A stretch of 63,054 nucleotides of DNA, counting the filler, from Gemmatimonadota bacterium (GTDB taxonomy: Bacteria > 4572-55 > J002): the NCBI GenBank assembly GCA_003697105.1. It is 4 parts of 4 records of this genome, joined end to end, with 100 filler letters (N's around TTAATTAATTAA, not from the genome) between each part and the next. Parts side by side here need not be neighbours in the genome. Positions count along the whole stretch, not along the records: positions 51,714 to 63,054 come from RFFQ01000030.1; 3 more parts are not named here. One strand, written 5' to 3'. Below are positions 559 to 63,054 of this stretch, piece after piece. The notes beneath the pieces were generated by a model. The model made no database searches. It saw only the letters and a program-made list of their open reading frames with translations, and was not told where the DNA came from. A program made the position numbers and the translations under genes. Numbering within the stretch: position 1 is the first letter of the stretch; the number at the start of each line of letters is the position of its first letter.

Positions 559-1581
559 TTATCCTTGAAAATCTGGAGGATGGCACAAAGCGAATTCCTC
601 GGGTGTAATGAGGTTGTGCTGAAGGAATTCCATGATGATGGTTTCCGTCATATCACTCATAAAAGGGAATTCATAGCGGATGTCGAATACATACGCTTTT
701 AGTCGCATCTTGATGATTGAGCGTCCCTGATGAATCTCATTTTTGAAGATCACACGGATCGGCTTGTTGAGGTAAATATAGCGGGAAACTGCCGCCGCCC
801 GGTATGCCAGCTTGCGGGCTCGTACCAAATCAATATGTGCCGGCAGATAAATCTCGGCAACCACCTGACAGTTGGATTCCCCCGCATTGGCATTGGAGAC
901 TGATTGATTCATAATTTCCCCATTGGGGATCGAAACCAACGAGTCATCCGGGGTGACAATGCGTACCGACCGTAGCCCAATTTGCTTGACCTCGCCGTAG
1001 TAATTGTTAATCTCAATTTTATCACCCACTTGGAATGGTCGATCAAACAGAATCATAATTCCACCAAAAATGTTTTTCAGAATATCTTGAGAGGCGAAGC
1101 CAACGGCTAAGCCTGTAGAAGCACCCACCGCCAGCAACGTTTCCACCGGTGGGGAAAACACCCTCGTAATAATCAGATAAATAACCAACATCCATGCCAG
1201 AATCCGAAATACAGGAATAATTCCTTTGATGGTCAACCGGAGATTTGTCCACCGCTCAGAAATAGCTTCCAATAGTTGGGTCAGGGCTTGGATCAGAAAA
1301 AACGCCAGAATAAAAATAGCCGTAGCCCAAAAAATTTTGCCGTAGGGGATGGAAATCACCGGTTTGGCATCTTTCATTTTTTTGGTGATGGGAGGGGCTT
1401 CCGCGGGGGGTTGTGATGCAGAGATCGCTGGCGTGGGGGCAGAATCTATGACGCTGGACACCGTATCGGCAAACTTAACGTTACGGGTTATGGCATCCAC
1501 TTGTAAGGTCTCCTGTGCCTCGGTGATGCTTACTCCGACGACCGTCAACAGAATAATAATCCAACCAAATGGGTATTTCAT
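559..1581 (-). CDS. MscS-family small-conductance mechanosensitive channel protein
   Basis: TM helices followed by GLAVGFASQDILKNIFGGIMILFDRPFQVGDKI and IGLRSVRI...IPN; N-terminal signal-like segment. Confidence 0.92.
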   Translation of the reverse strand: MKYPFGWIIILLTVVGVSITEAQETLQVDAITRNVKFADTVSSVIDSAPTPAISASQPPAEAPPITKKMKDAKPVISIPYGKIFWATAIFILAFFLIQALTQLLEAISERWTNLRLTIKGIIPVFRILAWMLVIYLIITRVFSPPVETLLAVGASTGLAVGFASQDILKNIFGGIMILFDRPFQVGDKIEINNYYGEVKQIGLRSVRIVTPDDSLVSIPNGEIMNQSVSNANAGESNCQVVAEIYLPAHIDLVRARKLAYRAAAVSRYIYLNKPIRVIFKNEIHQGRSIIKMRLKAYVFDIRYEFPFMSDMTETIIMEFLQHNLITPEEFALCHPPDFQG

Positions 1582-1589
1582 GGTGGGTC

Positions 1590-4500: not shown

Positions 4501-4670
4501 GTGTCAGGGCGTTCGGTTTGGCGGCGCCGTTCGAGATTTTCATGGAGTAGCTCAATGTACCGGTTTACCTTATCTTTGTAAGGATTGCGCCACGCCGAAA
4601 GCAACTTTTTAGCCGTTGCTTCGGCAACCTCTTGAAACGGACGTACATACTGGGTCGGGGTTGTCGGCAT
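1590..4670 (-). CDS. Large P-loop ATPase (long helical N-terminus, C-terminal AAA/STAND-like NTPase and probable winged helix)
   Basis: FFVGR motif, Walker A GEKGSGKTS, Walker B-like CIFEN. Start chosen at ATG 4670 (MPTTPT); the ORF track extends to 4781. Confidence 0.75.
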   Translation of the reverse strand: MPTTPTQYVRPFQEVAEATAKKLLSAWRNPYKDKVNRYIELLHENLERRRQTERPDTPSTNLWREQEYMVKQFQEWVKNLHSELATSTPDQVWGLWQETFRTTLETVPETITLEIPPTFWNRDPTDAVPVRLWKTYRAFRYRLRQEHHRILQWIRRHPKKEIPPDTRTFHLHHFLRFTLEYPFAECLYHEWQRLMHLIAQHLYQFHQISEETKTAFLFLSEIETSGLTPSREARDQKWKILEHHLTTIEECIIQLDTFIVDALDQVYTAWEARVTEVKRQWPYAGTFALPEKMFDAKRLQSHWNTLNKQFQQDQTAWQTHWNGEIEEWQKDLELLLLQFRISQLSLKTFETVQSKMETQLTPIFREVKALLAQSLATFTNVDTEDKLALRRHILSENRTLLKTLRDEKLPLMIDSLLQAQVDRFLQEYAYRAKNALEIVSENHTIFKERDLEHIPPRSKVENVALKQLVEDKIFRELAQEHQVFMQTVQTHVEHILRDISETDQIVEFNLEAALTLLRRQRTNIEAFDDAQKIAVEGLERAIKQLDTIIEHCQQIVQQSNHFFCKRSVSFGRQILALADDERILEIQLRIARIQAEEQFHRYYQHVWTTLTQGIPHTINTFIRYSQNALTTLQTRIVHLKKITGLAPTPENVGERIAQFLNETTQRIKHLPYVYQRLFRNEPLRDERFFVGRRAEMVRLQTDFEAWQAGQPKLTAVVGEKGSGKTSLLNFAAKQIFQETTVVKVRLDNTVYTETKLLEHLKRALKEPDAQNLNELEARILARDESMVCIFENIQNMFLRTIDGFEALESFLLFITKTQSRIHWLLCCTLYSWQYLDKVIHISTYFRRVIHMEIMATAEIKEIILRRNRASGYQLVYEVPPTIANTRKFRRLRSEEEQQHYLEDIFFHQLNDVAASNITVAMLFWQRSIKKNTEDKLVVSPLVDFDHSFLYQLTVDELFILAALLQHENLSIDETARVFRFELQYSALMLNRMEQSGIVIRHKTYYRIHPFLYRPIVRALKIQNILH

Positions 4671-4781
4671 GGATAATCTCTTGCCAGAAGTTGGGGTTTG
4701 GTTTGTATAATTGTACTTGATCTTTTCAGAAGTCGTCAAGCAAAATAGGGGCGTTGGCACCGTTACACGAAATGTAAACAC

Positions 4782-4817
4782 AAAAAAGTGATGGCCTGCC
4801 GGATGACCATCACTTTT
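4782..4817 (-). terminator. Intrinsic terminator downstream of ribE
   Basis: AAAAAAGTGATGG...CCATCACTTTT inverted repeat with A/T tails. Confidence 0.7.
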
Positions 4818-4869
4818 GAATTGCCTTGTACTGTGGAGGGCGTCCGAATCGTTTAATACCGGGTTAATT

Positions 4870-5508
4870 TCACGAGTATCCTAAAGTTTTTAGTTTTTCC
4901 AAGGTGAGGGTCTGAGATTTAGGGGTACCGAGTAAGCGCTCGATATATTTGCCCAAAATATCCACCTCAATATTCACCTGATCCCGTATGTGGAGTTGCC
5001 CGAGTGTGGTTTGATCGAGGGTATAGGGAATGAGCGAAACGGTAAATTGTTCTGGTGTAAGGTGGGCGATGGTCAAACTTACCCCATCGACCGTAATGGA
5101 GCCCTGTTCCACCACGTAACGCATCCATTTGGGGTCTATTCGGATTGAAAAAAGGGTACTGCTGGCACGTTCCCGCCGCTCAACTACGGTTCCCACACAA
5201 TCCACGTGTCCGGCAACGATGTGCCCGCCGAAGCGATCCCCCACCGCTAGGGCACGTTCCAAATTGACCCGGCTACCCGGCCGTAAATTGCCCAACGTTG
5301 TTTTTTGGAGGGTTTCTTCAACCGCTTGCACCGTGAATGTGGTTGCCTGACGTTCGATTACCGTTTGGCAAGCTCCATTGACGTTGATGCTGTTATCGAT
5401 CTGTAAATCTTCCAAAACAGCGCGGGCTGAGATGGTGATTCGCCGGGAACCCCCTTGCGGTTGCACGTGTTGCACCATGCCCACTTCTTCAACCAGTCCA
5501 GTAAACAT
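4870..5508 (-). CDS. ribE: Riboflavin synthase (alpha chain; ribC in E. coli naming)
   Basis: MFTGLVEE start, GACQTV, VNLERAL, GGHIVAGHVD, GSITVDGVSLT, VNIEVD. Confidence 0.97.
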   Translation of the reverse strand: MFTGLVEEVGMVQHVQPQGGSRRITISARAVLEDLQIDNSINVNGACQTVIERQATTFTVQAVEETLQKTTLGNLRPGSRVNLERALAVGDRFGGHIVAGHVDCVGTVVERRERASSTLFSIRIDPKWMRYVVEQGSITVDGVSLTIAHLTPEQFTVSLIPYTLDQTTLGQLHIRDQVNIEVDILGKYIERLLGTPKSQTLTLEKLKTLGYS

Positions 5509-5646
5509 GATCAATACTCCTGCAAAAATGAGTAAAGAAGAATGTGTTCGTTCAGTATATGCCAAAAATCCGATTCAAGTCAACAGTAAACCGCGGTGAT
5601 ATGGCGTCCTGAAAAGGAGAGACTGTCCAAAATACCTGAAAAATTC

Positions 5647-5675
5647 TTGACAAGGGTGACACGGTAATGTAAAAT
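5647..5675 (+). promoter_or_regulatory. Sigma70-type promoter for PilZ-ruvB-kinase
   Basis: TTGACA-17 nt-TAAAAT. Confidence 0.7.
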
Positions 5676-5724
5676 GCGACAACCTTCGCTAACTTTTGGC
5701 TTTTATGAAAGGGAGAATAGTTCC

Positions 5725-6099
5725 ATGAATGTTCCTACCGGGGTAGAGCGTCGTCGGTATAAGCGCGTTCCGCTTCAAAACGTTATTATTGAGCTATCCC
5801 CGCCGACGGATGGCAAGAAATACACCGGAATGATCCGGGACATTAGTTTGGGCGGAATGTTGATCGCCTTTGAAACGCAACCGCCTAAGCCGGACGAATT
5901 CGCCCATGTTACGTTCATCTTACCCAGTGCGGGGGTGTTTTCTTATATTAAAATGCAAGTGATGCGCGAAACACGGGATAAAGAAGGGTTGTATGCGCTA
6001 GGGCTTGAGTTTGTAAACTTAAATGCCGAAGATCGTGCTAAACTGGAACGCTTTTTTCAGAATCACGCCAACTATTATAACCAACAGGATGAATCCTGA
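5725..6099 (+). CDS. Stand-alone PilZ domain protein (c-di-GMP receptor)
   Basis: RxxxR (RRYKR) and DxSxxG (DISLGG) motifs, GLEF near the C-terminus; GGGAG RBS before ATG 5725. Confidence 0.88.
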
Positions 6100-6110
6100 C
6101 GAGGTGTTTC

Positions 6111-7145
6111 GTGAACGATTCCGAACGGCTTACCACGCCGGATAAATTAACCGGTGATACAGACCTTGAGATTACCCTCCGCCCCCTTCGCTTAGATGAT
6201 TTCACGGGTCAGGAAAAGATCAAGGAAAATCTAAAAATTTATATTCAGGCGGCAAAAGGGCGCGGGGAAGCCCTTGACCATCTGCTTTTTTACGGACCGC
6301 CCGGGCTGGGTAAAACGACGTTAGCCGCCATTATTGCCAAAGAGATGGGAGTCAATATCAAATCGACTTCCGGTCCCGTCATCGAACGCCCGGGAGACCT
6401 CGCCGGAGTATTGACCAATCTCCGCAAAGGGGATGTCCTGTTTATTGATGAAATTCACCGCTTGAATCATGTGGTGGAGGAATATCTCTATTCCGCCATG
6501 GAAGATTTCACCCTTGATATTATGATTGATAAGGGTCCCAACGCGCGTTCGGTCAAACTCAACTTGGAACCCTTTACCTTAGTGGGTGCTACCACCCGCG
6601 TGGGATTACTTACCTCACCGTTGCGCGCTCGCTTCGGGGTGATTAATCGTCTGGATTATTATGATCCGCCCGATTTGCAACAGATTGTTATGCGCTCCGC
6701 GAAAGTGTTGGGGGTGGGTATTACCGCGGACGGGGCACTCGAAATCGCGCGGCGTTCTCGGGGGACACCCCGTATTGCCAATCGATTTTTGCGCCGCGCT
6801 CGGGATTATGCCCAAGTCATCGCCGATGGCGTCATTACCAAAGAGATTGCCCACCAGACATTGCAAATGCTCGAAGTGGATCAGGAAGGTCTGGATGAAA
6901 TGGATCGCCGCTTGATCTTAGCGATTATTGAAAAGTTTAGCGGGGGTCCGGTCGGGGTAAAAACCGTCGCGGTGGCCGTTGGTGAAGAACCGGACACCAT
7001 TGAAGAAGTCTATGAGCCGTATTTGATTCAAAAAGGGTTTTTAAAACGCACTCCGCGGGGACGTGAGGCGACACCTTATGCCTATGATTATTATGGGATT
7101 CCGCGGTCTGAAGAGACCAATCAACTGTCATTCTTGGCATCTTAA
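6111..7145 (+). CDS. ruvB: Holliday junction branch migration helicase RuvB
   Basis: [43 protein letters not shown]. Confidence 0.99.
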
Positions 7146-7177
7146 GCGATAGCGAGTTGTCCTAAGGAGGTAATCCG

Positions 7178-8875
7178 TTGGAAGAAAATAATGTAACGCG
7201 CCGTAGACCTTCAGGGCGCCGTCGCCCGCCAGGAATAGATGTCCCGCGTCATAGACGCCGGTACACCGACCATCTGGTGGAAAAAGCCCATAAAAAGACA
7301 ATTCTGTTGGTGGATGATGACCCGCTGGTGCGAAGTGCCATGAAAATGGCGATTTCCGATGATTATAATGTCCTTGAAGCCGAAGATGGCTATCAAGGGT
7401 TGGAAGTACTACGAAATCATGTTTCGGAAATCCAATGTGTGGTCACGGATATTCGGATGCCGGGTTTAAATGGTTCGGAGTATATGGCAAAAGCCGGAGA
7501 AGTCACCCAAGATGTCTATTTTGTGATTGTCACCGGGCATAAAGGGGAAGTGACCGAATCTAAATTGATCAGTGATGGTAGTGGGCGGCTAAGCGGCTTT
7601 CTGGAAAAGCCAATCTCCAATGATGAACTCAAATACCAGATTCAAAAAGCGGTTGAATTAACTCAAATTCAACAGGATCGCGCCCGGGCAAATTACAATG
7701 CCCAACAATTAGTCGAAGCTGTAGAGACGATCTATGCCGCCACCAATGAAGATGAACTCTTACAGTTGATCATTGATAATGTCTCGCGTTTTATGTCTGT
7801 GAAAACCGCGTTTTGGGCACTGGCAGACTCGCGGAATAACTTGTTGATCCGGGGCGGGTCAGACCGATTTAGCGGGCTGATCGGTGACCCCATTGAAGGC
7901 AATCCCAACCTCCGGTCTGCGGATGTGGAAGCTGTCCGCAAAGCAATTGAAGAAGATACTGTCACGGAAAATGAGCATATTATGGCATTGCCCCTGTATA
8001 ATGGCGTGATTTTGCTCTTTGGTAATCCTCTGATCGATGCACGAGATAAAAATTTTATCCGAACGTATGTCCGCAATGCGGAACAGGCACTGGAACGCAT
8101 GCATCTTTACGAAAAATTGAAAGATGCCAATACCAAACTCACCCAGTTGGATAAAATGAAAACGAAATTCACGGATATTATCTCCCATGAATTGCGCACA
8201 CCGTTGGCGTCCATGAAAGGGTATCTCTTTTTGCTGGACGTTCAAGCGCGCCCCAAACTGGATGAGGAAACGACCCAAAGTTTAGAAATTATCAATAATT
8301 GCACCAACAAACTGGTGGCTATCGCCAATGATGTGACCAACTTATCGCGTTTGACCTCTGCGGAAATCAAATTACGCTTAACCACTATCAATTTGGCGCA
8401 ATTGTTTCAGGATATTCAGAAAGAGGTCGAGTTATTCATCAAATACCGGAATCAAGTGTTTCAGACCCATATTGAAGAAGGATTGGTTAACATTGTGGGA
8501 GACCAAGAGGGGATTTCACAAGCGATCAAAAACTTGATTATGAATGCCATCAAGTTTACTCCAGATGGGGGAACGATCTCTTTGAAAGCACGTCAAACCA
8601 CTTCCACTTACGAAATTCAAGTATCCGATACCGGAATTGGTATTCCGGAGAGTGAATTTGAGAATATCTTTTCTGGGTTTTATGAAGTCGGAGACACCAG
8701 TTATCACCATTCTGGCACGTTTGAGTTCAAAGCTGGCGGGTTAGGCTTAGGATTGCGGATTGTCAAAAGCATCGTCAGTGCGCATGGCGGGGATGTCCGC
8801 GTAGAAAGTGAATTGGAAAAAGGCTCTACGTTCACCCTTCTTTTGCCGAAAACAATAACCCCCGCGGCAACTTAA
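7178..8875 (+). CDS. Cytoplasmic hybrid histidine kinase (REC - GAF-like - HisKA - HATPase)
   Basis: LLVDDD/TDIRMPG/KP receiver; SHELRTPL H-box; NAIKFT, DTGIGI and GLGLGL boxes; no TM segment. Confidence 0.93.
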   Translation: MEENNVTRRRPSGRRRPPGIDVPRHRRRYTDHLVEKAHKKTILLVDDDPLVRSAMKMAISDDYNVLEAEDGYQGLEVLRNHVSEIQCVVTDIRMPGLNGSEYMAKAGEVTQDVYFVIVTGHKGEVTESKLISDGSGRLSGFLEKPISNDELKYQIQKAVELTQIQQDRARANYNAQQLVEAVETIYAATNEDELLQLIIDNVSRFMSVKTAFWALADSRNNLLIRGGSDRFSGLIGDPIEGNPNLRSADVEAVRKAIEEDTVTENEHIMALPLYNGVILLFGNPLIDARDKNFIRTYVRNAEQALERMHLYEKLKDANTKLTQLDKMKTKFTDIISHELRTPLASMKGYLFLLDVQARPKLDEETTQSLEIINNCTNKLVAIANDVTNLSRLTSAEIKLRLTTINLAQLFQDIQKEVELFIKYRNQVFQTHIEEGLVNIVGDQEGISQAIKNLIMNAIKFTPDGGTISLKARQTTSTYEIQVSDTGIGIPESEFENIFSGFYEVGDTSYHHSGTFEFKAGGLGLGLRIVKSIVSAHGGDVRVESELEKGSTFTLLLPKTITPAAT

Positions 8876-52086: not shown

Positions 52087-54663
52087 ATGAGACTCGATAA
52101 ATTTACCTTAAAATCGCAAGAGGCATTGCAAGCCGCGCAGGAAATTGCCGATCAGCATCAACATCAGGCAATTCATGATGTGCATCTGCTGCTGGCACTG
52201 ATCGAACAGTCCGAAGGTGTTGTTGTACCGTTGTTGCAAAAGTTGGGTGCCCGTCCAGAACGTATTGTGGACGAAACGCAGCAGGTGCTACAGACAATTG
52301 CCAAAGTGCAAGGTGTTACGGGGCAGCATTATCTTTCTACGGCGCTCCAAAAAGTGTTGGATGACGCCTGGAAAGAAGCTCAACGGCTAAAAGATGAGTA
52401 TATTAGTACGGAACATTTGCTCATGGCACTTGCCACTTCCAGTGAAAAAGCCGGTAAAATCCTGCGGGATAATGGGGTGAAAAAAGATGCCATCCTCAAA
52501 GTTTTAAAAGAGATTCGCGGTTCACAGCGGGTGACTGACCAAAATCCAGAAGATAAGTATAATGCGTTGAAGCGTTTCGGGGTCAATCTGGTGGATGCCG
52601 CCCGGCAAGGCAAAATTGACCCCGTGATCGGGCGCGATGAAGAAATCCGGCGAACGATTCAAGTGTTATCCCGTCGGAAAAAAAACAATCCGGTGCTAAT
52701 CGGGGAACCGGGTGTCGGGAAGACCGCGATTGTGGAAGGTATCGCACAACGGATTGTGGAAGGCGACGTCCCGGAATCCCTTAAAAATAAGCAGTTGATC
52801 GCATTGGATATGGGAGCGCTCATCGCGGGAGCAAAATTTCGGGGAGAATTTGAAGACCGGTTGAAAGCGGTCTTGCGGGAAGTTACCGAAAGTAACGGTG
52901 AAATCATCCTGTTTATTGATGAGTTACACACGATGGTGGGTGCCGGTGCGGCAGAAGGCGCGGTTGATGCCGCCAATATGCTCAAGCCTGCGCTCGCCCG
53001 GGGGGAATTACGCTGTATTGGTGCCACAACCCTCGATGAATATCGCAAATACATCGAAAAAGATGCCGCGTTGGAACGGCGATTCCAACAAGTTTACGTT
53101 GACCAGCCCTCCGTTAGCGACACCATCAGTATTTTGCGCGGTCTCAAGGAAAAATACGAGGTACATCACGGGATTCGCATTCAGGATAACGCCCTCGTTG
53201 CCGCCGCCGTCCTCTCAAACCGCTATATCACGGATCGATTCTTGCCGGACAAAGCGATTGACCTGATCGATGAAGCCGCCTCCAAACTACGGATCGAGAT
53301 CGATAGTATGCCCCATGAAATCGATGAGGTCGAACGGCGCATCCGCCAACTGGAAATCGAACGGCAAGCGCTTAAAAAAGAAAAAGATAAAGCCTCACGG
53401 GAACGGCTGGAGAACCTCGAACGCGATCTGGCAGAACTGAAAGAAAAATCAAGCCAGATGAAAGCGCAATGGCAGCACGAAAAAGAGATCATTTTAGCCA
53501 TCCGGCAGGTCAAAGAAGAGATCGACCAGATCAAAATCCAGATGCAACAAGCCGAACGAAACGGCGACCTGAATCGTGCCGCCGAGTTAAAATACGGGCA
53601 ACTCCCCGCCGCGGAACGGAAACTGGAAGAATTGAATCACAAACTAGCAAAAATTCAACTAGACCGCAGTTTTTTGAAAGAAGAGATCGATGAAGAAGAT
53701 ATTGGCGAAATTGTTTCCAAATGGACGGGAATTCCGGTCAGCAAATTGTTGGAGAGTGAAAAGCAAAAACTGGTGAGGATGGAAGACAATCTACGGCAGC
53801 GCGTGGTTGGGCAAGATGATGCGCTGGAAGCTGTCGCCGATGCGGTGCGACGAAATCGTGCCGGTCTGGGTGACCCCAACCGCCCCATTGGCTCGTTTAT
53901 TTTCCTGGGTCCCACCGGTGTCGGTAAGACCGAAACCGCCCGTGCGCTTGCGGAATTCCTTTTTGATGACGAACGGGCAATGGTGCGAATCGATATGTCC
54001 GAATTTATGGAAAAACATAGTGTCTCCCGTCTGATCGGTGCGCCGCCGGGCTATGTTGGGTACGATCAAGGCGGATATTTGACAGAAGCGGTGCGCCGTC
54101 GTCCGTACAGCGTCATTTTGTTCGATGAAATTGAAAAAGCGCACCCGGATGTCTTCAATGTACTGCTGCAAATTCTGGATGACGGCCGCCTGACCGACGG
54201 GCAAGGTCGAACCGTGGATTTCAAAAATACGGTCATTATTATGACCAGTAACATTGGTAGCCAGTGGATATCTGACCTCGGCGAAAATGTGGAGCAGATC
54301 GAACACCGCGTGATGGAAGCTATGAAACAGCACTTCCGCCCGGAATTCCTCAACCGGATTGACGAAACCATCATCTTCCATCGTCTGAAAAAGGAACATC
54401 TGCGCCAGATTGTGGACATCCAACTGCAACACCTGCGGGATCGCCTCGCAGACCGGAAACTCAACTTGACGATTACCGATGCCGCCAAAGATTATCTCGG
54501 CGAAATGGGTTATGATCCCATTTACGGCGCACGCCCGCTCAAGCGACTGATCCAGAAAGAACTTGAAAATCCGCTGGCACTGCGCTTACTCGAAGGGCAC
54601 TATCTGGAAGGTGATACCATCGTTGTGGATCGCGGTGGTGCCGGGTTGGAGTTTAAGAAATAA
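52087..54663 (+). CDS. clpB: ATP-dependent chaperone ClpB
   Basis: Two AAA+ modules ([16 protein letters not shown]), long middle coiled coil with [16 protein letters not shown]. Confidence 0.99.
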
Positions 54664-54817: not shown

Positions 54818-55267
54818 GGCAACATCCGCCGGAGCGACAGTAGAAAGACGAATTCGACAGAGTCGCAGAGTAAGAGACTTCTCGTGCCAATTCCACTGCC
54901 TTGATTTGTTCGGTTTTGGCTTGGCCTTGAAACTTTTGTTTGCAATGATGCCCCCATTTTACCCCAATTACCAGCACTTTTCAAATTGAAAGATTCCATT
55001 GGGAAAAACGGCACGGTGTCTTTTTCTTTTGATTTGTTTTTTTGCTCCAATCCGGCGCACGATTGCGGACGGCGTTGGCGGTGTCGTTTCCGCCATAAAC
55101 CGGGAGCAATGGAGCGACAAACCGCCAACACGTAAGGAACGGTTCGCCCGTTTTAAGCAATATAGACATTGTTAGCAGGCATTACGGAATTAGTGGATCA
55201 GCACCGAATGCGCATGTTATCCCGCGATCCAAGTCAGAAAAAGTAACTGACACCCTTTAAACAAGTG

Positions 55268-55302
55268 GCTCCTCAATATATTAGTATTGAGGAGCTTTTT
55301 TT
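55268..55302 (+). terminator. Intrinsic terminator upstream of the nap promoter region
   Basis: GCTCCTCAATA...TATTGAGGAGC followed by T7. Confidence 0.8.
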
Positions 55303-55582
55303 ATGGTAGGAGCCAATGCTGAGCGGTAGAATCTTTGCTTGCCATAATTTTATAAACTTGCGCTTCGTTAAACTCATTTTACACCGGCTTCGAGGCGTTA
55401 TTAGCTACCCCTACATGCGGTTTTTCATTTCGTTGACCGATGAAACTTGTCCTTGCCCGTCTGATGTTCTATCTTCTATCCACCGCATTGCATTGTGCCC
55501 ATTATTTGGATAGGAGCCTTAACATTTAGGTAAGGTTATTGGTGCGGGGATTGCGAATTTTTCCCCATCTTTATTTCAGGGA

Positions 55583-55598
55583 CTTGACTAAAGTCAAG
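55583..55598. promoter_or_regulatory. Crp/Fnr-family (FNR/DNR-like) binding site upstream of the nap operon
   Basis: Palindrome CTTGAC-TAAA-GTCAAG versus FNR consensus TTGAT-N4-ATCAA; 85 nt before napD. Confidence 0.7.
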
Positions 55599-55682
55599 GC
55601 TAGATTTGTTGTTTGGGATTATTATGAATTAACCGATAAAAGAGTATTAATACTTAATAATGCGATTTGAAGAGGAATCGTT

Positions 55683-55916
55683 ATGCCAATCAAAAGTTAT
55701 CTTGCCTATCCATTAGAGGGCAAAAAGCAACAACTCGCGCAGGAGTTGGCAAATATAACTGGATGTGAAATCATACCATCAACGAACACCGAATTAATTG
55801 TTTTGGTGACAGAAACAGCAGACGAACAGGCAGAGACCGAGCTAGAAAATCGCTTGAAAAACCTCATGTCATTGCAATGTTTAACAATGGTTTCCGGTTT
55901 TGGCGATCATGCTTAA
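55683..55916 (+). CDS. napD: NapD-like nitrate reductase chaperone
   Basis: 77 aa, MPIKSYL start, LIVLVTET, ferredoxin-like pattern; directly before napA. Confidence 0.75.
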   Translation: MPIKSYLAYPLEGKKQQLAQELANITGCEIIPSTNTELIVLVTETADEQAETELENRLKNLMSLQCLTMVSGFGDHA

Positions 55917-55939
55917 TCTTAACGTTTAGGAGTAAACTA

Positions 55940-58267
55940 ATGAATCGAAGAGAATTTTTAAAGCAGATGGCTGCCGTCACCGCCATGACAGCGGCGGCGA
56001 CGATGTTTCCGGGCATTCTGTTTGCCGAAGACCAGAACAAAACACTACCAAACGATGATCTAACGTGGAAAAAAGCACCATGCCGGTTTTGTGGTGTGGG
56101 TTGTGGGTTGTTGATTGGTTTGTCGGGGGGTCGTGCGGTAGCGGTCAAAGGAGACCCAGCAAGTCCGGTCAACAAAGGGTTGTGTTGTGTCAAGGGCTAT
56201 CACTCTGTGATGGCATTGTACGGCGCCGATCGATTAAAAACGGCGTATGTTCGCAAAAATGGGGAGCTTGTCCCCACGCCAATCAAGGAAGCACTTGATC
56301 TGGTTGCCCAAAAGATGCAAGAAACCATTAAAACACATGGTAAAGATTCGGTGGCAATGTATGGATCGGGGCAGTGGACCATTCCGGACGGTTATGTTGC
56401 TTCCAAATTGATGAAAGGGGCTATCGGGACAAATAATCTGGAAGCGAACGCCCGGTTGTGCATGGCAAGTGCGGTCACCGGTTTTATCAGTACATTCGGG
56501 ATCGATGAACCGATGGGCTGTTATGAAGATATTGATCATGCCGATGTATTTGTGTTATGGGGCAATAACATGGCAGAAATGCATCCGGTGCTATTTTCAC
56601 GAATACTGGATCAGCGCCTTAAACGCAAAGATGTAAAAATTATCGATTTGGCGACGCGAACGACACGCACCAGTATGGCGGCAGATAAATCGATTCTGTT
56701 TTTGCCCCAATCAGATTTAGCCCTTGCCAACGCAATCTGTTACGAAATTTTGCGGAATGGCTGGGAAAACAAATCATTTATCGAAAAACATTGTCATTTC
56801 AAGAGCGGTAAGACCAATATTGGGTATGGGGTAGAGGATAAATTCGCGTTTAAAGACGAGAATACCGATATAACCTTTGATCAATATAAAAAATTTCTGG
56901 AAGATTATACTCCTGAAAAAGTGGAGCAGATATCGGGGGTATCGGCAAAGGACATTCGGTATCTTGCCTCATTATATGGTGATCCCAACCGCAAAGTAAC
57001 CAGTTTCTGGTGCATGGGTATGAACCAACATACACGCGGAACGTGGATCAACAACCTCGTTTACAACATCCATTTACTGGTGGGTAAGATTTCCACCCCG
57101 GGTAATAGCCCGTTCTCACTAACCGGACAGCCCAGCGCCTGCGGAACCGTGCGAGAAGTTGGCACTCTTACCCACAAACTCCCCCACGGTGTGGTAATGA
57201 ACGAGGAGGCTCGGAAAAAAGCCGCGAAAATCTGGAAAGTGCCGGTAGAGAACATCCCTCCCAAACCCAGCCTACACACCGTTGAAATGTTTCGGGCATT
57301 GGATCGGGGCGAGGTAAAATTTATGTGGATTCAAGTCACCAACCCGATGGTAACCATTCCAAAACTGAATCGCTATCGAGAGGGTGCACAAAAAGCGGGT
57401 CGATTTATTGTTGTTTCGGATGTTTACCCCACACCCACAACCGATATTGCTGATGTAATTTTGCCTTCTGCTATGTGGATCGAGCGAGAAGGGATGTTTG
57501 GCAATTCCGAACGACGAACCCAACATTTTGAGAAAATGGTGGATCCCCCCGGCGAAGCCATGAGTGACACCTGGCAGATTATCGAAGTTGCCCGCCGGAT
57601 GGGATTTCAGGAGCTTTTTCCGTGGGATGAAGCGACTCATATTGAAGAGATTTGGAAAGAGTACACCCAATTTCATGCGGGTGAAAAACACGGCATGGCA
57701 CCTTATGAGGTTCTCAAAGAGCGTCCCGGTGTGATGTGGCCCTTCGTCAATGGAAAAGAGACCAAATGGCGTTTTAATGCAGAAACCGATCCGGCAGCAA
57801 AAGATGGTGATCCGTTCAAATTCTATGGCAAACCCGATGGTAAAGCCTGGATTCTGGCGCGTCCGTATGAACCCCCTGCGGAAGAACCCGACGATGAATA
57901 TCCATTCTGGTTAAATACCGGTCGTGTATTGGAACATTGGCATACCGGCTCAATGACGCGGCGAATCCCCGTATTGCATAAAGCCATGCCGCATAGCTAT
58001 GTTGAACTCAATCCCGAAGATGCGAAAGAATTAGGTATCCGTAATGGTGAAAACGTCCTCCTGACTTCCCGACGGGGCAAAATTACACTCCCCGCATCGA
58101 TCAATGAACGGGGTGTTCCACCCAGAGGTCAAGTCTTTGTCCCATTTTTTGATGAAAACCTGTTAATTAACGAATTAACGCTTGACGCGTTTTGTCCCAT
58201 CTCTAAACAACCGGATTATAAAAAATGCGCCGTGAAAGTTCAGAAAGCCCTCAAAAGCGAATCGTAA
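55940..58267 (+). CDS. napA: Periplasmic nitrate reductase catalytic subunit
   Basis: Tat signal NRREFLK; CRFCGVGC...CVKG; GSGQW; NARLCMASA; MGMNQH; SLTGQPSACGTVREVG; TGRVLEHWHTG; PDYKKCAV. Confidence 0.98.
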   Translation: MNRREFLKQMAAVTAMTAAATMFPGILFAEDQNKTLPNDDLTWKKAPCRFCGVGCGLLIGLSGGRAVAVKGDPASPVNKGLCCVKGYHSVMALYGADRLKTAYVRKNGELVPTPIKEALDLVAQKMQETIKTHGKDSVAMYGSGQWTIPDGYVASKLMKGAIGTNNLEANARLCMASAVTGFISTFGIDEPMGCYEDIDHADVFVLWGNNMAEMHPVLFSRILDQRLKRKDVKIIDLATRTTRTSMAADKSILFLPQSDLALANAICYEILRNGWENKSFIEKHCHFKSGKTNIGYGVEDKFAFKDENTDITFDQYKKFLEDYTPEKVEQISGVSAKDIRYLASLYGDPNRKVTSFWCMGMNQHTRGTWINNLVYNIHLLVGKISTPGNSPFSLTGQPSACGTVREVGTLTHKLPHGVVMNEEARKKAAKIWKVPVENIPPKPSLHTVEMFRALDRGEVKFMWIQVTNPMVTIPKLNRYREGAQKAGRFIVVSDVYPTPTTDIADVILPSAMWIEREGMFGNSERRTQHFEKMVDPPGEAMSDTWQIIEVARRMGFQELFPWDEATHIEEIWKEYTQFHAGEKHGMAPYEVLKERPGVMWPFVNGKETKWRFNAETDPAAKDGDPFKFYGKPDGKAWILARPYEPPAEEPDDEYPFWLNTGRVLEHWHTGSMTRRIPVLHKAMPHSYVELNPEDAKELGIRNGENVLLTSRRGKITLPASINERGVPPRGQVFVPFFDENLLINELTLDAFCPISKQPDYKKCAVKVQKALKSES

Positions 58268-58947
58268 ACACCAAATACCGGATCATTTTTATTGGGATTT
58301 GTGTGATTCTGATGACCTCAGCCATCTATATTATCGGTGAGAGTCTCCAGCAAGAACAGCAAGGTGCGGAACTGAAAGCACCTGCCACCGGCGATATACC
58401 GTCAATTCCCGTCGAAGCCGGAGTATTCCGCCGGTCGGAACAGGCGTTGACCTATGCCAATGCACCGGAAAATAACAAAAACCCACGTACGCTGGACACA
58501 TTCTATGATTTGCGGGCGTATCCCGGAGCACCACCGGTAATCCCCCATGAATTGATTAATGAGCAAAGCTATGGGGGCAAAAGTTGCTTACCGTGCCATG
58601 AAAATGGCGGTTATGTCCCCCGATTTAACGCCTACGCACCAGTGACACCGCATCCCGAAATGATCAATTGCCGCCAATGCCATGTGGCCGTCAAAACAAA
58701 AGATACCTTTAAGGAATCAAATTGGGTGACCATAATACCCCCCCCTATCAATCAGGAAGCGATGACGGGAAGTCCTCCGCCCATTCCGCACGGGTTGCAG
58801 ATGCGCGAAAATTGTCTTGCCTGCCATGCGGGACCGGCAGCGCCGACCGAAATTCGGACATCCCATCCTGAACGCATCAACTGCCGTCAATGTCATGCTT
58901 TAAATGATAAACCGACAACGGCTTGGACTCGAAACACTTCTTACTAA
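58225..58947 (+). CDS. Membrane-anchored tetraheme cytochrome c made of two NapB-like repeats
   Basis: N-terminal TM helix; CLPCH, CRQCH, CLACH, CRQCH; each pair preceded by PPxIPH; start codon uncertain. Confidence 0.85.
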   Translation: MRRESSESPQKRIVNTKYRIIFIGICVILMTSAIYIIGESLQQEQQGAELKAPATGDIPSIPVEAGVFRRSEQALTYANAPENNKNPRTLDTFYDLRAYPGAPPVIPHELINEQSYGGKSCLPCHENGGYVPRFNAYAPVTPHPEMINCRQCHVAVKTKDTFKESNWVTIIPPPINQEAMTGSPPPIPHGLQMRENCLACHAGPAAPTEIRTSHPERINCRQCHALNDKPTTAWTRNTSY

Positions 58948-58957
58948 GAGATGATCT

Positions 58958-59611
58958 ATGAAACACTTTACCCGATATTTTCTTATTGTGAGTGCTATTT
59001 TTGGTCTCTATGGGTTGGTGGGCTGTGGTAATCGGGATCATGCGGACTTTGCGGCGATAACAAAACATCGAAGTTTACCGGAACAGCTCGAACATATAAC
59101 AGAACCGAACACCAACGGCGGTGTGACCATTGACGCACTAGTTGCTGAGATTACCACCGTAGATGCCATTGGACTTCCTCCCGATATCCAACCGTTTCAG
59201 GTTAAAGATCGACTGGTTGAATTGAGCAAATATCCGTGCCTAAATTGCCATTCCAAATCCATCGAACAATTAAAAATAGAGCAGGCAGATAGCCTTCGCA
59301 ATGCCCACTGGGACGTGGAACTAAATCACGCCCCGGAACATGTGATGAAGTGTGGTACATGCCATAATGAGGAAAATTTCGATCAACTGAAAACCCTAAA
59401 CGGTGAACCAGTATCGTTTAGCCACAGTTACTTGATTTGTGCTCAATGTCACTCCCAACAACATGAGGATTGGATGATCGGTGCACACGGTAAACGGCTT
59501 GGCGGATGGGCACCACCGCGGGTCGTCAATAATTGTACACACTGCCATAACCAACACCAACCGGCGTGGGGAAAACGGTGGCCCGCTCGTGTGACTCAAA
59601 CCGTACACTAA
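58958..59611 (+). CDS. Tetraheme cytochrome c, probable lipoprotein
   Basis: Lipobox LVGC; CLNCH, CGTCH, CAQCH, CTHCH; GAHGKR. Confidence 0.88.
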   Translation: MKHFTRYFLIVSAIFGLYGLVGCGNRDHADFAAITKHRSLPEQLEHITEPNTNGGVTIDALVAEITTVDAIGLPPDIQPFQVKDRLVELSKYPCLNCHSKSIEQLKIEQADSLRNAHWDVELNHAPEHVMKCGTCHNEENFDQLKTLNGEPVSFSHSYLICAQCHSQQHEDWMIGAHGKRLGGWAPPRVVNNCTHCHNQHQPAWGKRWPARVTQTVH

Positions 59612-59627
59612 TGGAGAACAGGAAACA

Positions 59628-60776
59628 ATGAATGCGAAAAACCCTTCTCATTCAATGGAAAGTTGTAATGAAAATTGCGCAAATACGGCTGATTTAAGCA
59701 TCTCCACCTTGATCGAGGGTATGCTGGCGGAAAATATCCTCTCAACTCCTGAAAAAACAGAACGTGACTTAGAGGTGTTAATGGAGCGTAATCAAGAAGG
59801 AGATGGTTGGAACGAACCCACCGATCAAGTGATTCCCTCGGGCTACCAACAAATGGTACAGCAACCGGTGAACCGGCGAACTGCAGTAAAAATCGTTGCC
59901 GCCGGACTCCTTGCTGGTGCGGGGCTCTTCCAAACTGCATGTAGCCCCTTCGCCAGTGCCGAAGCCAGAGAAAAAGCCCAACTGAATTGGGAAGAGTACT
60001 TCAAAGGCAATTTTCGGTTAATGAGCGACGACGAAAAGGAAGCCACTGTTGCCCGGTTAGAACGCTTGTATGAACTGAACACCGGTAAACATCTTAATAT
60101 TTCGGCGGCGAATGCGCTACCGGGAGTATTGTACGGTTATGCGTTCAATATTTCCAAGTGCCGCGGTTATATGGATTGTGTGCGTGCGTGTATCAACGAA
60201 AATAATCAAGATCGTAAATCGGGAATGCAGTACATCACAATTCATGAGCATAAAAAAGGACAGATCAATTTTGAGCATGCTGAAGATGATTTTTACCATG
60301 AAGTGCCTCAAGAGGGTCATTTTTACATCGGTACACAGTGCTTTCATTGCGAAAATCCACCTTGTGTGAATGTGTGTCCCGTCAAAGCCACATGGAAGGA
60401 ACCTGACGGTATTGTGGTCGTGGATTACGATTGGTGCATCGGCTGCCGTTACTGCGAAGCCGCTTGTCCTTATGACGCACGTCGTTTTAATTGGGCGGAT
60501 CCGGTCATTCCTGAAGAAGAAGTCAACCGAAACCAGCATTATTTAGGCAACCGTCTGCGCAAAAAAGGGGTGATGGAAAAATGTACCTTCTGCATCCAGC
60601 GAACCCGAACGGGTAAAAATCCAGCCTGTGTGGAAGCCTGCCCCACCGGCGCACGAATTTTTGGAAATCTACTCGACCCCAATAGTGAAATACGCCATGT
60701 TTTGCGGACCAAAAAAGTCTTTCGATTAAAAGAAGACTTAGGTACAGAGCCAAAATTCTGGTATTTTATGGATTAG
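59628..60776 (+). CDS. NrfC/DmsB/PsrB-like iron-sulfur subunit with Tat-like motif
   Basis: CFHCENPPCVNVCP, CIGCRYCEAACP, KCTFC...PACVEACP, GTEP; NRRTAVK plus hydrophobic stretch. Alternative start at 59781. Confidence 0.93.
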   Translation: MNAKNPSHSMESCNENCANTADLSISTLIEGMLAENILSTPEKTERDLEVLMERNQEGDGWNEPTDQVIPSGYQQMVQQPVNRRTAVKIVAAGLLAGAGLFQTACSPFASAEAREKAQLNWEEYFKGNFRLMSDDEKEATVARLERLYELNTGKHLNISAANALPGVLYGYAFNISKCRGYMDCVRACINENNQDRKSGMQYITIHEHKKGQINFEHAEDDFYHEVPQEGHFYIGTQCFHCENPPCVNVCPVKATWKEPDGIVVVDYDWCIGCRYCEAACPYDARRFNWADPVIPEEEVNRNQHYLGNRLRKKGVMEKCTFCIQRTRTGKNPACVEACPTGARIFGNLLDPNSEIRHVLRTKKVFRLKEDLGTEPKFWYFMD

Positions 60777-60876
60777 CCAAAGGGGTTCATCAACGAATAA
60801 GCAGTCTTCAATGAGCGTGTCAAGCAATGGTAGGGTTCAAAGTTTACAGAACGTAACTAGATAGGAACGAAAACGT

Positions 60877-62103
60877 ATGAAAGTGTTGATCGGCTTTATT
60901 AAAGATGCGGTAATCTCGGTGACATCCGGCAGTTTAAAATACCATATCTGGATGGCATTCCTCACCTTTTTGATGCTCTGCGGTGCCTATGCCTACTCAA
61001 TTCAGATCAAAAACGGACTGATTGTTACCGGTATGAGCGACGGCGTAAGTTGGGGGCTTTACATTTCCAACTTTACCTTTTTGGTCGGTGTTGCCGCCGC
61101 CGCCGTGATGCTGGTGTTACCCACATACATCTTGAAAGATATCGATTTTTCCCGTGCCGTATTAATTGGTGAAGGGATGGCAGTTGCCGCGTTGGTCATG
61201 TGTTTAGCGTTTGTTACGGTTGATTTAGGGGGACCCGCCCGTATCTGGCACTTGATCCCCGGTATTGGCTTGTTCAATTTTCCCAACTCCATGCTCAGTT
61301 GGGATGTAATTGTTCTTAACGGCTACCTGTTTATCAATTTAACGATCCCCTTGTATATTTTGCTCTGGCATTATCAGGGGAAAGAACCGAAAAAAGCAGT
61401 TTACTTACCGGGCGTTTTTATCTCCGTCTTTTGGGCCGTGGCGATTCATATGGTGACGGCATTTTTATACGCTGGATTGGTTTCGCGCCCGTTTTGGAAT
61501 TCATCCTTGTTAGGACCACGGTTTTTAGCATCCGCCTTCGCCGCGGGACCGGCGCTGATGATCCTTGTTTTGGGGGTGATTCGCCGTAACACGGATTATT
61601 GGGTAGAAGACATCACCTTAAATAAAATAGCGCTGGTGACAACCGTAGCCGCACAAATCAACATGGTGATGCTTATCTCCGAGCTATTTAAAGAGTTTTA
61701 CTTCCCCACACACCATAGTCTGAGTGCAATCTATCTCTATTTTGGGTTGGACGGCTACGATGGATTGACTCGTTGGATTTGGCCCGCCGTGATTATGAAC
61801 CTGATCGCCACGATCATGTTGACCCTGCACCCGTTACGAAAAAATCCGTTTTTCTTAAAGCTCGCGTGTTTGATCTTATTTGTTGCCATTTGGATTGAAA
61901 AAGGAATGGGTTTAATTATCCCCGGTTTTATCCCTGGACCATGGGGGAAAATCATTGAATACACCCCAACCTGGATCGAAATTGTGGTGACTGCTGGCGT
62001 TTGGGCACTGGGTTTATTTGTATTTACCCTACTTGTTAAGATTGCAATTCCCATAGAATTAGGACAATTGCGATTTCACCAGACGGCAACAAACCAACCC
62101 TAA
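60877..62103 (+). CDS. NrfD/PsrC/DsrP-family membrane quinol-interacting subunit
   Basis: TGMSDGVSWGLYISNFTFLVGVAAAA, DLGGPARIWH, SMLSWD, HMVTAFL, IEKG, YTPTWIE; about 10 TM helices. Confidence 0.93.
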   Translation: MKVLIGFIKDAVISVTSGSLKYHIWMAFLTFLMLCGAYAYSIQIKNGLIVTGMSDGVSWGLYISNFTFLVGVAAAAVMLVLPTYILKDIDFSRAVLIGEGMAVAALVMCLAFVTVDLGGPARIWHLIPGIGLFNFPNSMLSWDVIVLNGYLFINLTIPLYILLWHYQGKEPKKAVYLPGVFISVFWAVAIHMVTAFLYAGLVSRPFWNSSLLGPRFLASAFAAGPALMILVLGVIRRNTDYWVEDITLNKIALVTTVAAQINMVMLISELFKEFYFPTHHSLSAIYLYFGLDGYDGLTRWIWPAVIMNLIATIMLTLHPLRKNPFFLKLACLILFVAIWIEKGMGLIIPGFIPGPWGKIIEYTPTWIEIVVTAGVWALGLFVFTLLVKIAIPIELGQLRFHQTATNQP

Positions 62104-62333: not shown

Positions 62334-62362
62334 TTGACAGATAGTAAAATCTGTTTTATTCT
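62334..62362 (+). promoter_or_regulatory. Sigma70-type promoter
   Basis: TTGACA-17 nt-TATTCT. Confidence 0.55.
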
Positions 62363-62454: not shown

Positions 62455-63054
62455 ATGAAACACCATATTCTTACCCTTATATCCATATGTTTGGCTTTGG
62501 TTTTTGTTCATCGGCTTTTGCTAATGCGATCATTTCCGATCAACTTCAAGACGAACTGAATACCGCAGGAGAAACCGAGTTCATAGAAGCAATCATTTTT
62601 ATGGTTGACCAAGTTGATACGAAAACACTAGACCGCCAACTGTATAAAGAACAAGCCTCACCCGCAGACCGAGCGTATACCGTTATTACCGCATTGCAGG
62701 ATAAAGCGAATCAGACTCAGAATAGTTTGGCAGCATATCTGGACGCGAAAACATCAGCTGAAGTAAACCAATACAAAAGTTATTGGATTGTAAATGCGGT
62801 TTTTGTTGAAGCTATCCCATCCGTTTTAAGCGAGATCAGTCTTGATCCGACTGTTTATTATATGGATAGCAATGTACCTATTGAAATTGATGAACCGGAT
62901 GCGAACTTGTATCTAGACCCTCCGGATTGTCCTGAAGAAGGTTCTGAAGATATAGAGTGTGGTATTCGAGTCATTAATGCTCCCGCACTTTGGGATTTAG
63001 GAATTACAGGCACTGGAGTTGTGGTTATGAATGTGGATACTGGTGTTGACGGTA
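62455..63054 (+). CDS. Secreted S8 (subtilisin/bacillopeptidase F-like) peptidase, 5' part; frameshift in signal peptide as assembled
   Basis: Propeptide YWIVNAVFV, then INAPALWDLGITGTGVVVMNVDTGVDG (catalytic Asp motif). ATG 62455 with GGAG RBS is out of frame by one base at the T5 run 62501-62505. Confidence 0.85.

Follow-up and report, generated by a model that had tools for sequence, protein, structure and literature searches.

A conserved nap gene cluster that joins napDA to two tetrahaem cytochromes and a DsrO/DsrP-like NrfD module

Introduction

In the usual account, the periplasmic nitrate reductase Nap is a non-coupling enzyme that receives its electrons from NapC or NapGH; with either donor, the energy of the menaquinol-nitrate step is lost. 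The NrfD family of membrane proteins is under active debate as an ion-translocating unit. In this study, we analyzed a 63,054-nucleotide stretch of DNA (hereafter the window) from the Gemmatimonadota bacterium assembly GCA_003697105.1, in which genes for NapD and NapA are followed by genes for two tetrahaem cytochromes (named Cyt1 and Cyt2 here), an Fe-S protein and an NrfD-family membrane protein.

The accessible part of a 2026 review of Nap lists four operon types, napEDABC, napDAGHB, napCMADGH and napAGHBFLD, none of them with NrfD-type genes (PMC13223375), and the accessible part of a 2021 review of NrfD-like subunits covers fifteen complexes without any occurrence of the word "Nap" (PMC8076601). 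Five further papers, as far as their available text goes, deal with napCMADGH-, napAGHD- or napGHCAD-type clusters or with unrelated NrfD genes (PMC11896075, PMC5317091, PMC5516251, PMC13047784, PMC12780646). A search of the full-text literature, with subscription journals and supplements outside its reach, returned no description of a six-gene Nap/NrfD operon. The genes of this operon are abundant in public data, often under the names DsrO/DsrP or polysulfide reductase NrfD, and the operon type itself is apparently undescribed.

Here we report that the six genes recur as a conserved unit. With a probability of about 0.65, we propose that they encode a self-contained and dedicated menaquinol:nitrate pathway, in which electrons would run from the NrfD-family protein through the Fe-S protein, Cyt2 and Cyt1 to NapA, and in which the NrfD/Fe-S pair would replace NapC or NapGH as the quinol dehydrogenase.

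Gene arrangement and comparison with described systems

The six genes all lie on the plus strand of the window between 55683 and 62103, in the order napD-napA-Cyt1-Cyt2-Fe-S protein-NrfD-family protein (Table 1); a sequence-only reading of this DNA had listed the same six co-directional genes, and its list proved correct. From 5′ to 3′ the genes are separated by 23 nucleotides (nt), a 43-nt overlap of napA with the Cyt1 gene, 10 nt, 16 nt, and 100 nt in front of the NrfD gene.

The nearest functional analogue is best sought in NrfABCD, whose subunits are listed in Table 1 of the 2021 review as far as accessible (PMC8076601), and which likewise combines a quinol site in NrfD with a four-cluster Fe-S protein in the periplasm, a multihaem cytochrome and a soluble reductase that is also periplasmic. 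Unlike NrfABCD, which ends in the pentahaem NrfA, the unit ends in the molybdoenzyme NapA; it carries two tetrahaem cytochromes whereas NrfABCD has one pentahaem NrfB, and contains no nrfA. Its Fe-S protein reaches 124 bits with the NrfC model TIGR03149, against a cut-off of 377.6.

By sequence, the closest system is DsrMKJOP rather than QrcCD, NrfCD or alternative complex III, with the Fe-S and NrfD-family proteins above the NCBIfam cut-offs of DsrO and DsrP. The accessible text of the 2021 review gives sulfate reducers and sulfur oxidisers as the only sources of DsrP, and places Asp and Lys at the quinol-site and mid-membrane positions of the Desulfovibrio DsrP known as DsrP1 (PMC8076601). 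Like DsrP1, the NrfD-family protein has 10 predicted helices, an Asp at the presumed quinol site, a Lys in mid-membrane and a periplasmic c-type cytochrome as its likely partner. Unlike in DsrMKJOP, no dsrMK, dsrJ or dsrAB was present among the scanned open reading frames (ORFs) of the window, the neighbours in complete loci are napDA, and the cytochrome is a tetrahaem lipoprotein, Cyt2, that gave no match to DsrJ.

The layout had been likened in the sequence-only reading to QrcABCD and alternative complex III. The comparison stands for the cast of subunits, namely a multihaem cytochrome, a molybdopterin-family protein, a protein with one 3Fe-4S and three 4Fe-4S clusters and a 10-helix NrfD protein (according to the accessible part of PMC8076601), but it fails at the level of sequence, which is closest to DsrO/DsrP, with QrcC and QrcD at 153 and 41 bits. 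All Qrc models stayed below their cut-offs (QrcB 73.7 vs 440, QrcC 152.6 vs 400, QrcD 41.3 vs 570 bits). While the molybdopterin-family subunit of Qrc and alternative complex III is cofactor-less, NapA here would be a working enzyme with its own signal peptide and chaperone. Unlike in alternative complex III, the Fe-S protein is a separate chain of 382 amino acids (aa) that matches the C-terminal part of the fused ActB (~1000 aa), the unit has one NrfD gene and no ActF, ActD or ActE, and the similarity to ActC is distant. With canonical Nap systems the locus shares NapD, a Tat-exported (twin-arginine translocation) NapA of the NapB-binding type and a NapB-type haem donor. It differs from them in a predicted quinol dehydrogenase that is neither NapC nor NapGH, in an extra tetrahaem lipoprotein, and in a NapB that appears duplicated in tandem and anchored in the membrane.

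Conservation of the six-gene unit

A scan seeded with the NrfD-family protein, with one genome per species, yielded 66 loci. The six genes were found in the same order and direction in 58 of them, that is, in every locus with enough DNA to hold the unit (58/58). In seven of the other eight, the contig breaks off at the very place where the missing genes are expected, and the last is a locus (L028) from a Gemmatimonadota metagenome-assembled genome (MAG). Because the same six genes stand in the same order in 58 of the 66 loci, the arrangement is not due to chance, and because the flanks vary between loci, the six genes form a conserved unit. By their record titles, 62 of the 66 loci belong to Bacteroidota, and the remaining four come from Calditrichia, Verrucomicrobia, Gemmatimonadota and a MAG of the Cellvibrionaceae. 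The protein search, by its source names, widens this range to Caldilineaceae and Anaerolineae (Chloroflexota) and Rhodothermales.

A second scan, of metagenomes and seeded with NapA, yielded over 600 stretches; 80 of these were retained. The genes for Cyt1, Cyt2, the Fe-S protein and the NrfD-family protein followed in this order 3′ of napA in all 30 loci with at least 4.3 kilobases downstream, and the 50 shorter loci held as many genes of the unit as their DNA length permits. Within an even sample of 301 Bacteroidota genomes, NapA was encoded in two, both with the six-gene cluster. The linkage between napA and the Fe-S/NrfD pair is thus tight and holds in both directions (58/58, 30/30 and, for the one NapA-positive genome of the sample that is not already counted, 1/1). 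The sequence-only reading had named a lack of conservation beside napA as a refuting condition, and this condition fails. That reading had also pointed to similar clusters annotated in other phyla, and it is right that the gene order is already in databases, with genomes of 66 species and over 600 stretches from metagenomes.

The mean pairwise identity was 81% for the Fe-S proteins and 85% for the NrfD proteins. Pairwise identities of the five larger proteins co-varied over 42 loci with rho values of 0.49-0.85, which shared ancestry alone could yield.

The flanks were inspected by eye. Upstream, many Flavobacteriaceae loci carry a ModE-like regulator (24), a porin-like outer-membrane protein directly 5′ of the unit (21) or MoeA (20). 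Downstream, the genes were named by eye as ccoNO cbb3 genes in 11 loci, CcoP-like in 12 and CcoG-like in 13, and a Crp/Fnr-family regulator stands immediately 3′ of the NrfD gene in five. In L028 (positions 1377-7950), a nucleotidyltransferase/HEPN-like (toxin-antitoxin) pair, an S9 peptidase and an OmpA-family gene lie between the genes for Cyt2, the Fe-S protein and the NrfD protein; the flank of this locus is too short to reach napA, and the insertion could be real or an assembly chimera.

The NrfD-family and Fe-S proteins

The NrfD-family protein matched the Pfam family NrfD (PF03916) with an E-value of 2.6e-30. It scored 401.3 bits with the DsrP model NF045798 (cut-off 350), 41.3 bits with QrcD and 29 with TtrC, and its hydropathy profile showed ten hydrophobic segments, taken as 10 predicted helices. 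The only solved chains that it reached were the ActC subunits of three alternative complexes III, the best being 6f0k_C with an E-value of 7e-13. In a phmmer alignment mapped by hand, H139, S164 and R395 of ActC align with D116, S138 and K342 of the NrfD-family protein. These ActC positions are assigned, in the accessible part of the 2021 review, to quinol protonation, the pocket entry and the meeting point of two putative proton half-channels (PMC8076601). The sequence-only reading had named the quinol-site and proton-channel residues as worth inspection, and D116, S138 and K342 are, together with Y62 and D143, invariant in 65 of 65 sequences. With the first three of these, the protein has the features of quinol-interacting NrfD proteins, namely an acidic or His residue in helix 2 (here D116), a conserved Ser at the pocket entry (S138) and a basic residue in helix 8 (K342).

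Among 1.84 billion representatives, 252 relatives of the NrfD-family protein were found at E ≤1e-30. DsrP was the only NCBIfam family at E ≤1e-20 in all 36 full-length representatives scanned (188-479 bits), and the three top-scoring DsrP-like representatives shared 41-42% identity with the protein of the window. A FastTree phylogeny, whose references are unnamed, placed nine Nap-linked sequences and one representative in a tight clade apart from the top-scoring group. By this tree, the Nap-linked NrfD proteins branch off separately within a broad family of DsrP-like proteins.

The Fe-S protein scored highest with DsrO (201.9 bits, cut-off 200), followed by QrcC (152.6), ArrB (133.7) and NrfC (124.3), and the solved structures related to it are those of ArrB, of PsrB and of ActB in its C-terminal part. 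The alignment (A2) contained 15 invariant cysteines in four groups, 178/184/188, 238/241/246/250, 270/273/276/280 and 319/322/334/338. The first group has three cysteines, and an invariant Y181 stands at the position expected for the fourth. This pattern would fit one 3Fe-4S and three 4Fe-4S clusters, a make-up that is likewise given for QrcC in Table 1 of the 2021 review as far as accessible (PMC8076601).

A twin-arginine motif is located at residues 83-84 of the Fe-S protein, behind a long N-terminal extension, and the reading frame is open upstream of this motif in all 65 relatives. The extension (59628-59945, the first ~105 residues) is cysteine-rich in most relatives; most Bacteroidota copies share a conserved WFSLNL...CGCGK..GGC.SH...DGFDQVF, and the copy in the window has SCNENC and EGDGW. 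A Cys after the hydrophobic region (..QTAC, ..STSC) may belong to a lipobox. An Atlas search with the N-terminal 160 residues returned unnamed clusters only, with scores of at most 0.90.

Complex prediction for the NrfD-family protein, the Fe-S protein (residues 108-382) and Cyt2 (residues 24-217), with Cyt2 as the partner, spoke neither for nor against an association; its score did not distinguish the true chain 1 from a replacement.

NapD and NapA

A napD homologue stands directly 5′ of napA in all 58 complete loci. The product in the window reached 25.9 bits with the Pfam family NapD, against a cut-off of 28 bits, and of ten relatives scanned, nine matched the family and two reached the cut-off. 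The best start of napA lies at 55940, seven bases after an AGGAG, in a frame open from 55877. NapA exceeded the cut-offs of NF010055 (1008 bits, cut-off 904) and TIGR01706 (980 bits, cut-off 930.55), and its N-terminus, MNRREFLK, contains the twin-arginine stretch RREFLK at residues 3-8. The cysteines for the FS0 cluster (C48, C51, C55 and C83) and C174 in RLCMASA, presumably the Mo ligand, were invariant in 43 of 43 aligned sequences. On these family matches, its identity as a periplasmic nitrate reductase is firm. The best solved relatives are the NapB-binding enzymes 3ml1, 2nya and 1ogy (832-785 bits) rather than the monomeric Desulfovibrio enzyme 2jio (605 bits), and judged by these scores NapA resembles the NapB-binding NapAs more than the monomeric one.

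The type of NapA bears on whether it might dock directly on the Fe-S protein, forming a three-subunit molybdoenzyme of the PsrABC/DmsABC type with the cytochromes as a side branch. The solved relatives of the Fe-S protein include ArrB and PsrB, which bind molybdopterin subunits directly, and NapA carries the FS0 cluster that is used in such docking. We consider this arrangement very unlikely. The FS0 face of NapA would be contested by NapB and the four-cluster protein; NapA itself is closest to NapAs that bind NapB, and a NapB-like protein is encoded next to napA in all complete loci. Furthermore, the two cytochromes are present as invariably as the Fe-S protein.

The two tetrahaem cytochromes

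Cyt1 has a single hydrophobic helix, at residues 20-38 near its N-terminus, and 4 CxxCH motifs, as have 54 of 54 relatives. Its first half contains the NapB signature PPVIPH...CxxCH. The match to the Pfam family NapB had an E-value of 8.5e-5 and 23.1 bits (cut-off 25.1), and a family profile built from 39 members matched the solved NapB chains 1ogy_B (4.3e-5), 1jni_A (1.3e-4) and 3ml1_B (3.9e-4) over both haem sites. The two halves of Cyt1 align with each other at 38% identity (E-value 2e-6). Because of the NapB signature and profile matches, and because the second half repeats the first, Cyt1 is a predicted membrane-anchored tandem, that is, a duplicated NapB. With such a donor facing a NapB-type NapA, the NapA end of the chain would be conventional.

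Cyt2 has a nearly invariant lipobox cysteine, Cys23. It carries 4 CxxCH motifs, also found in 64 of 64 relatives, together with the invariant H117, H124, H177 and H200, which suggests four bis-His haems. Family scans place it with cytochromes of the Paired_CXXCH / cytochrome c7 kind, and Cyt2-like proteins of ~200 aa are spread over many phyla. Neither single-sequence nor profile searches of PDB sequences gave a significant solved relative. Likewise, a Foldseek search of PDB with the AlphaFold2 model of Cyt2 (mean predicted local distance difference test score, pLDDT, 71.6; no haems) found no match at E ≤0.001, a wide VIA-align search reached no Z of 5 or more, with matches covering the signal helix only, and the model of Cyt1 (pLDDT 68.8; no haems) was without a match in Foldseek. 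Since both models lack haems, these empty structure searches say little.

Given its size of ~200 aa and its four haems, both as in NapC, Cyt2 might also be seen as a lipid-anchored descendant of NapC/NirT that itself serves as the quinol dehydrogenase, a view to which weak matches to PF03264 in 45 of 49 relatives (E ≤0.1, best 3.8e-8) would lend some weight. However, in three of eight relatives scanned singly, the matches at E ≤1e-4 were fragments of 42-52 of the 174 profile positions in varying register, with 22.8-30.5 bits against a cut-off of 24.1, and did not pass as single stretches. The Cyt2 of the window had no PF03264 match at E ≤0.1; a full-length match was not found, and a lipobox stands in place of the N-terminal membrane helix, which in NapC and NrfH forms the quinol site. 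A genome-wide search for PF03264 in four Bacteroidota genomes was empty as well. We read the weak matches as generic multihaem similarity; a NapC-like role of Cyt2 is unlikely, and its descent from NapC/NirT as the quinol dehydrogenase of the unit extremely so.

Usual quinol donors and other pathways

The window scan covered 48 ORFs: two short ones and 46 of the 51 with at least 150 aa, the other five being antisense ORFs contained in longer ones. The families NapC, NapG and NapH were absent among them. The same donors were sought in the genomes of five relatives, four Bacteroidota and one Calditrichia, of which two are complete. NapG was found in none of the five, and NapH above its cut-off in none; the best NapH match reached 65 bits against 213 and came from ORFs of ~470-545 aa that resemble the CcoG-like ORFs seen beside cbb3 genes. 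NapC/NirT (PF03264) had no match in the four Bacteroidota genomes. The sole match, in the Calditrichia genome (region G005:C4:93967-96014), lies 276 nt 5′ of an NrfA-like gene (563 bits) and, because it is directly upstream of that gene, we take it as NrfH; this relative probably reduces nitrate to ammonium. The absence of napC, napG and napH that the sequence-only reading had remarked upon thus holds for the window and extends to the whole genomes of the five relatives.

NapB-family matches in the relatives' genomes fall only inside Cyt1 of the nap locus (coordinates checked in G002 and G005), and neither DsrK nor DsrA exceeded its cut-off in any of the five. NirK was found in three of the five genomes, all three of them Bacteroidota. 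Besides the NrfD gene of the unit, each of the five genomes has one or more additional genes of the NrfD family, similar in size to ActC and probably encoding the ActC of an alternative complex III.

These genomes bring up a wider role for the module. The proteins Cyt1, Cyt2, Fe-S and NrfD could form a general quinol:cytochrome c oxidoreductase, a hub like alternative complex III, with NapA as one client beside NirK, NrfA, N2O reductase and cbb3 oxidase. NapA by itself would hardly seem to require two separate membrane-anchored tetrahaem cytochromes, in 11 loci the cluster is followed by cbb3 oxidase genes, and Cyt2-like proteins are widespread in other phyla; the presence of NirK in 3/5 relatives and the Bacteroidota genomes without a donor of the NapC/NirT type point in the same direction. 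We nevertheless consider such a hub unlikely. The module stands beside napDA in every locus with enough DNA (58/58, 30/30 and 1/1) whereas the flanks are otherwise variable, Cyt1 is specifically NapB-like, and for alternative complex III every relative already possesses a suitable second gene of the NrfD family.

That second gene could also be read differently. Cyt1 and NapA might be fed through soluble carriers by another quinol oxidase, either alternative complex III or a bc-type complex, while the Fe-S/NrfD pair does something else, such as running in reverse. The probable ActC in 5/5 genomes would provide such an oxidase, and the coupling of Nap to Qcr in Campylobacter has been published, according to the accessible part of the report (PMC6195509). 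This scheme would leave unexplained both the strict, reciprocal linkage of FeS/NrfD with napA and the high conservation of the Fe-S and NrfD proteins (81% and 85% mean identity), and we consider it very unlikely as well.

Proposed electron chain and possible energy conservation

The family assignments of the proteins are firm, and the sequence data also establish that the six-gene unit is strictly conserved and that the relatives lack NapC and NapGH; which way the electrons flow, which cytochrome comes first, and that the proteins associate and share one transcript are inferred. In the dedicated chain that we prefer, NapD would escort NapA to the Tat system. Menaquinol would be oxidised at a periplasm-side site of the NrfD-family protein formed by Y62, D116, S138 and D143, and the electrons would pass to the periplasmic four-cluster Fe-S protein, from there to the lipid-anchored tetrahaem Cyt2, and then to the helix-anchored double-NapB Cyt1. 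Cyt1 would dock on NapA as NapB does and feed its 4Fe-4S cluster and Mo centre, where nitrate would be reduced to nitrite. The predicted anchors are ten helices in the NrfD-family protein, a possible lipobox or an uncleaved Tat helix in the Fe-S protein, the lipobox of Cyt2 and one helix in Cyt1. Because each redox partner except NapA has its own anchor, the chain probably stays attached to the membrane surface, with or without a stable complex. None of the rival explanations accounts for the strict two-way linkage as simply as a dedicated chain does.

Several observations weigh against this proposal. The unit in L028 is interrupted by unrelated genes, so a single transcript is not obligatory, and the 100-nt gap before the NrfD gene has room for a promoter. 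Cyt2, being without a solved relative, owes its position in the chain to gene order and analogy, and most of its relatives show the weak NapC/NirT matches described above. The absence of the usual donors covers the window, and napC or napGH might be present elsewhere in its own genome. Finally, the further ActC-like gene in all five relatives means that an alternative quinol:cytochrome c route to Cyt1 is available there.

The chain raises the question of an energy-conserving Nap. The DsrP-like subunit might move protons through conserved polar residues that meet at K342, and the ~0.5 V drop from menaquinol to nitrate would then be partly captured by this subunit. K342 and the conserved polar residues would permit this, and the drop in potential is ample; we nevertheless put it forward tentatively and regard it as rather doubtful. 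If true, a large group of marine Bacteroidota and members of other phyla would carry out a periplasmic nitrate reduction that is directly electrogenic. The same cluster is carried, by record titles, by cultured strains of Arenibacter, Aquimarina, Polaribacter, Algibacter, Gelidibacter and Hyunsoonleella, and the old question of energy conservation by periplasmic nitrate reduction is therefore open to bench work.

Implications for annotation

The cluster is likely a fifth, widespread type of Nap operon with an NrfD-family input module. Surveys that demand napB, napC or napGH miss or undercall nitrate reducers with this operon. In addition, the NCBI models NF045797 and NF045798 name the Fe-S and NrfD proteins DsrO and DsrP in Seonamhaeicola (Flavobacteriaceae), Reichenbachiella and a Rhodothermales MAG. 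This naming of Nap-linked proteins is probably a systematic over-annotation, and through it gene surveys can count nitrate-respiration genes as sulfur-cycle genes.

Borders of the unit and neighbouring genes

Table 1 Positions in the window of the six nap-unit genes and of the sequence features at their 5′ side
Feature	Position	Strand	Remarks
Terminator-like hairpin	55267-55296	+	13 pairs, then a T run; closes the upstream unit and marks the 5′ boundary of the nap unit
Palindrome TTGAC-N4-GTCAA	55584-55597	.	Perfect; 86 nt 5′ of napD; candidate Crp/Fnr-family operator
napD-like chaperone gene	55683-55916	+	77 aa; Pfam NapD, under cut-off
napA, catalytic subunit with molybdenum-bis(pyranopterin guanine dinucleotide) (Mo-bisPGD), Tat signal	55940-58267	+	775 aa; NF010055 and TIGR01706 over cut-off
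Cyt1, predicted membrane-anchored tetrahaem, two NapB-like dihaem halves	58225-58947	+	240 aa; 4 CxxCH
Cyt2, predicted tetrahaem lipoprotein, Paired_CXXCH / c7-like	58958-59611	+	217 aa; LVGC lipobox, 4 CxxCH
Fe-S protein, DsrO/NrfC-like, twin-arginine motif	59628-60776	+	382 aa; DsrO NF045797
NrfD-family integral membrane protein, DsrP-like	60877-62103	+	408 aa; Pfam NrfD, DsrP NF045798; presumed menaquinol site

An AT-rich gap follows 3′ of 62103. The consensus scan for hairpins inside the nap unit returned two weaker ones, of 8 and 10 pairs, both in the NrfD coding sequence. This, the close spacing of the genes and the strong hairpin that ends the upstream unit speak for the proposed pathway. 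The palindrome upstream of napD is unique in that no other match to TTGAY-N4-RTCAA occurs in the 63 kb window, in which chance would give 0.58. It could serve as a Crp/Fnr-family operator, for which it is weak evidence because it was absent upstream of napD in 58 of 58 relatives.

An ORF of 65 aa without a family match (55316-55513) separates the terminator of the upstream unit from the nap promoter region. On the other side, an ORF that is open at its 3′ end (62487-63053) stands 3′ of a promoter-like site with 10 of 12 matching positions (62334-62362); it has a faint match (E-value 0.0044) to an LPXTG-anchored serine peptidase family and lies outside the nap unit. Two DNA sequencing runs from one study, labelled hot springs metagenome, contain the 6.5 kb stretch almost in full, and one of them may be its source; no RNA run was listed for it. 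The rest of the window is ordinary chromosome, encoding RuvB, ThrS, Ddl, MreBCD, PBP2, RpsA, ClpB and a chemoreceptor. The ClpB (52087-54663) shares at most 81% identity with any protein in a large collection and ~70% with the named ones, which come from many phyla.

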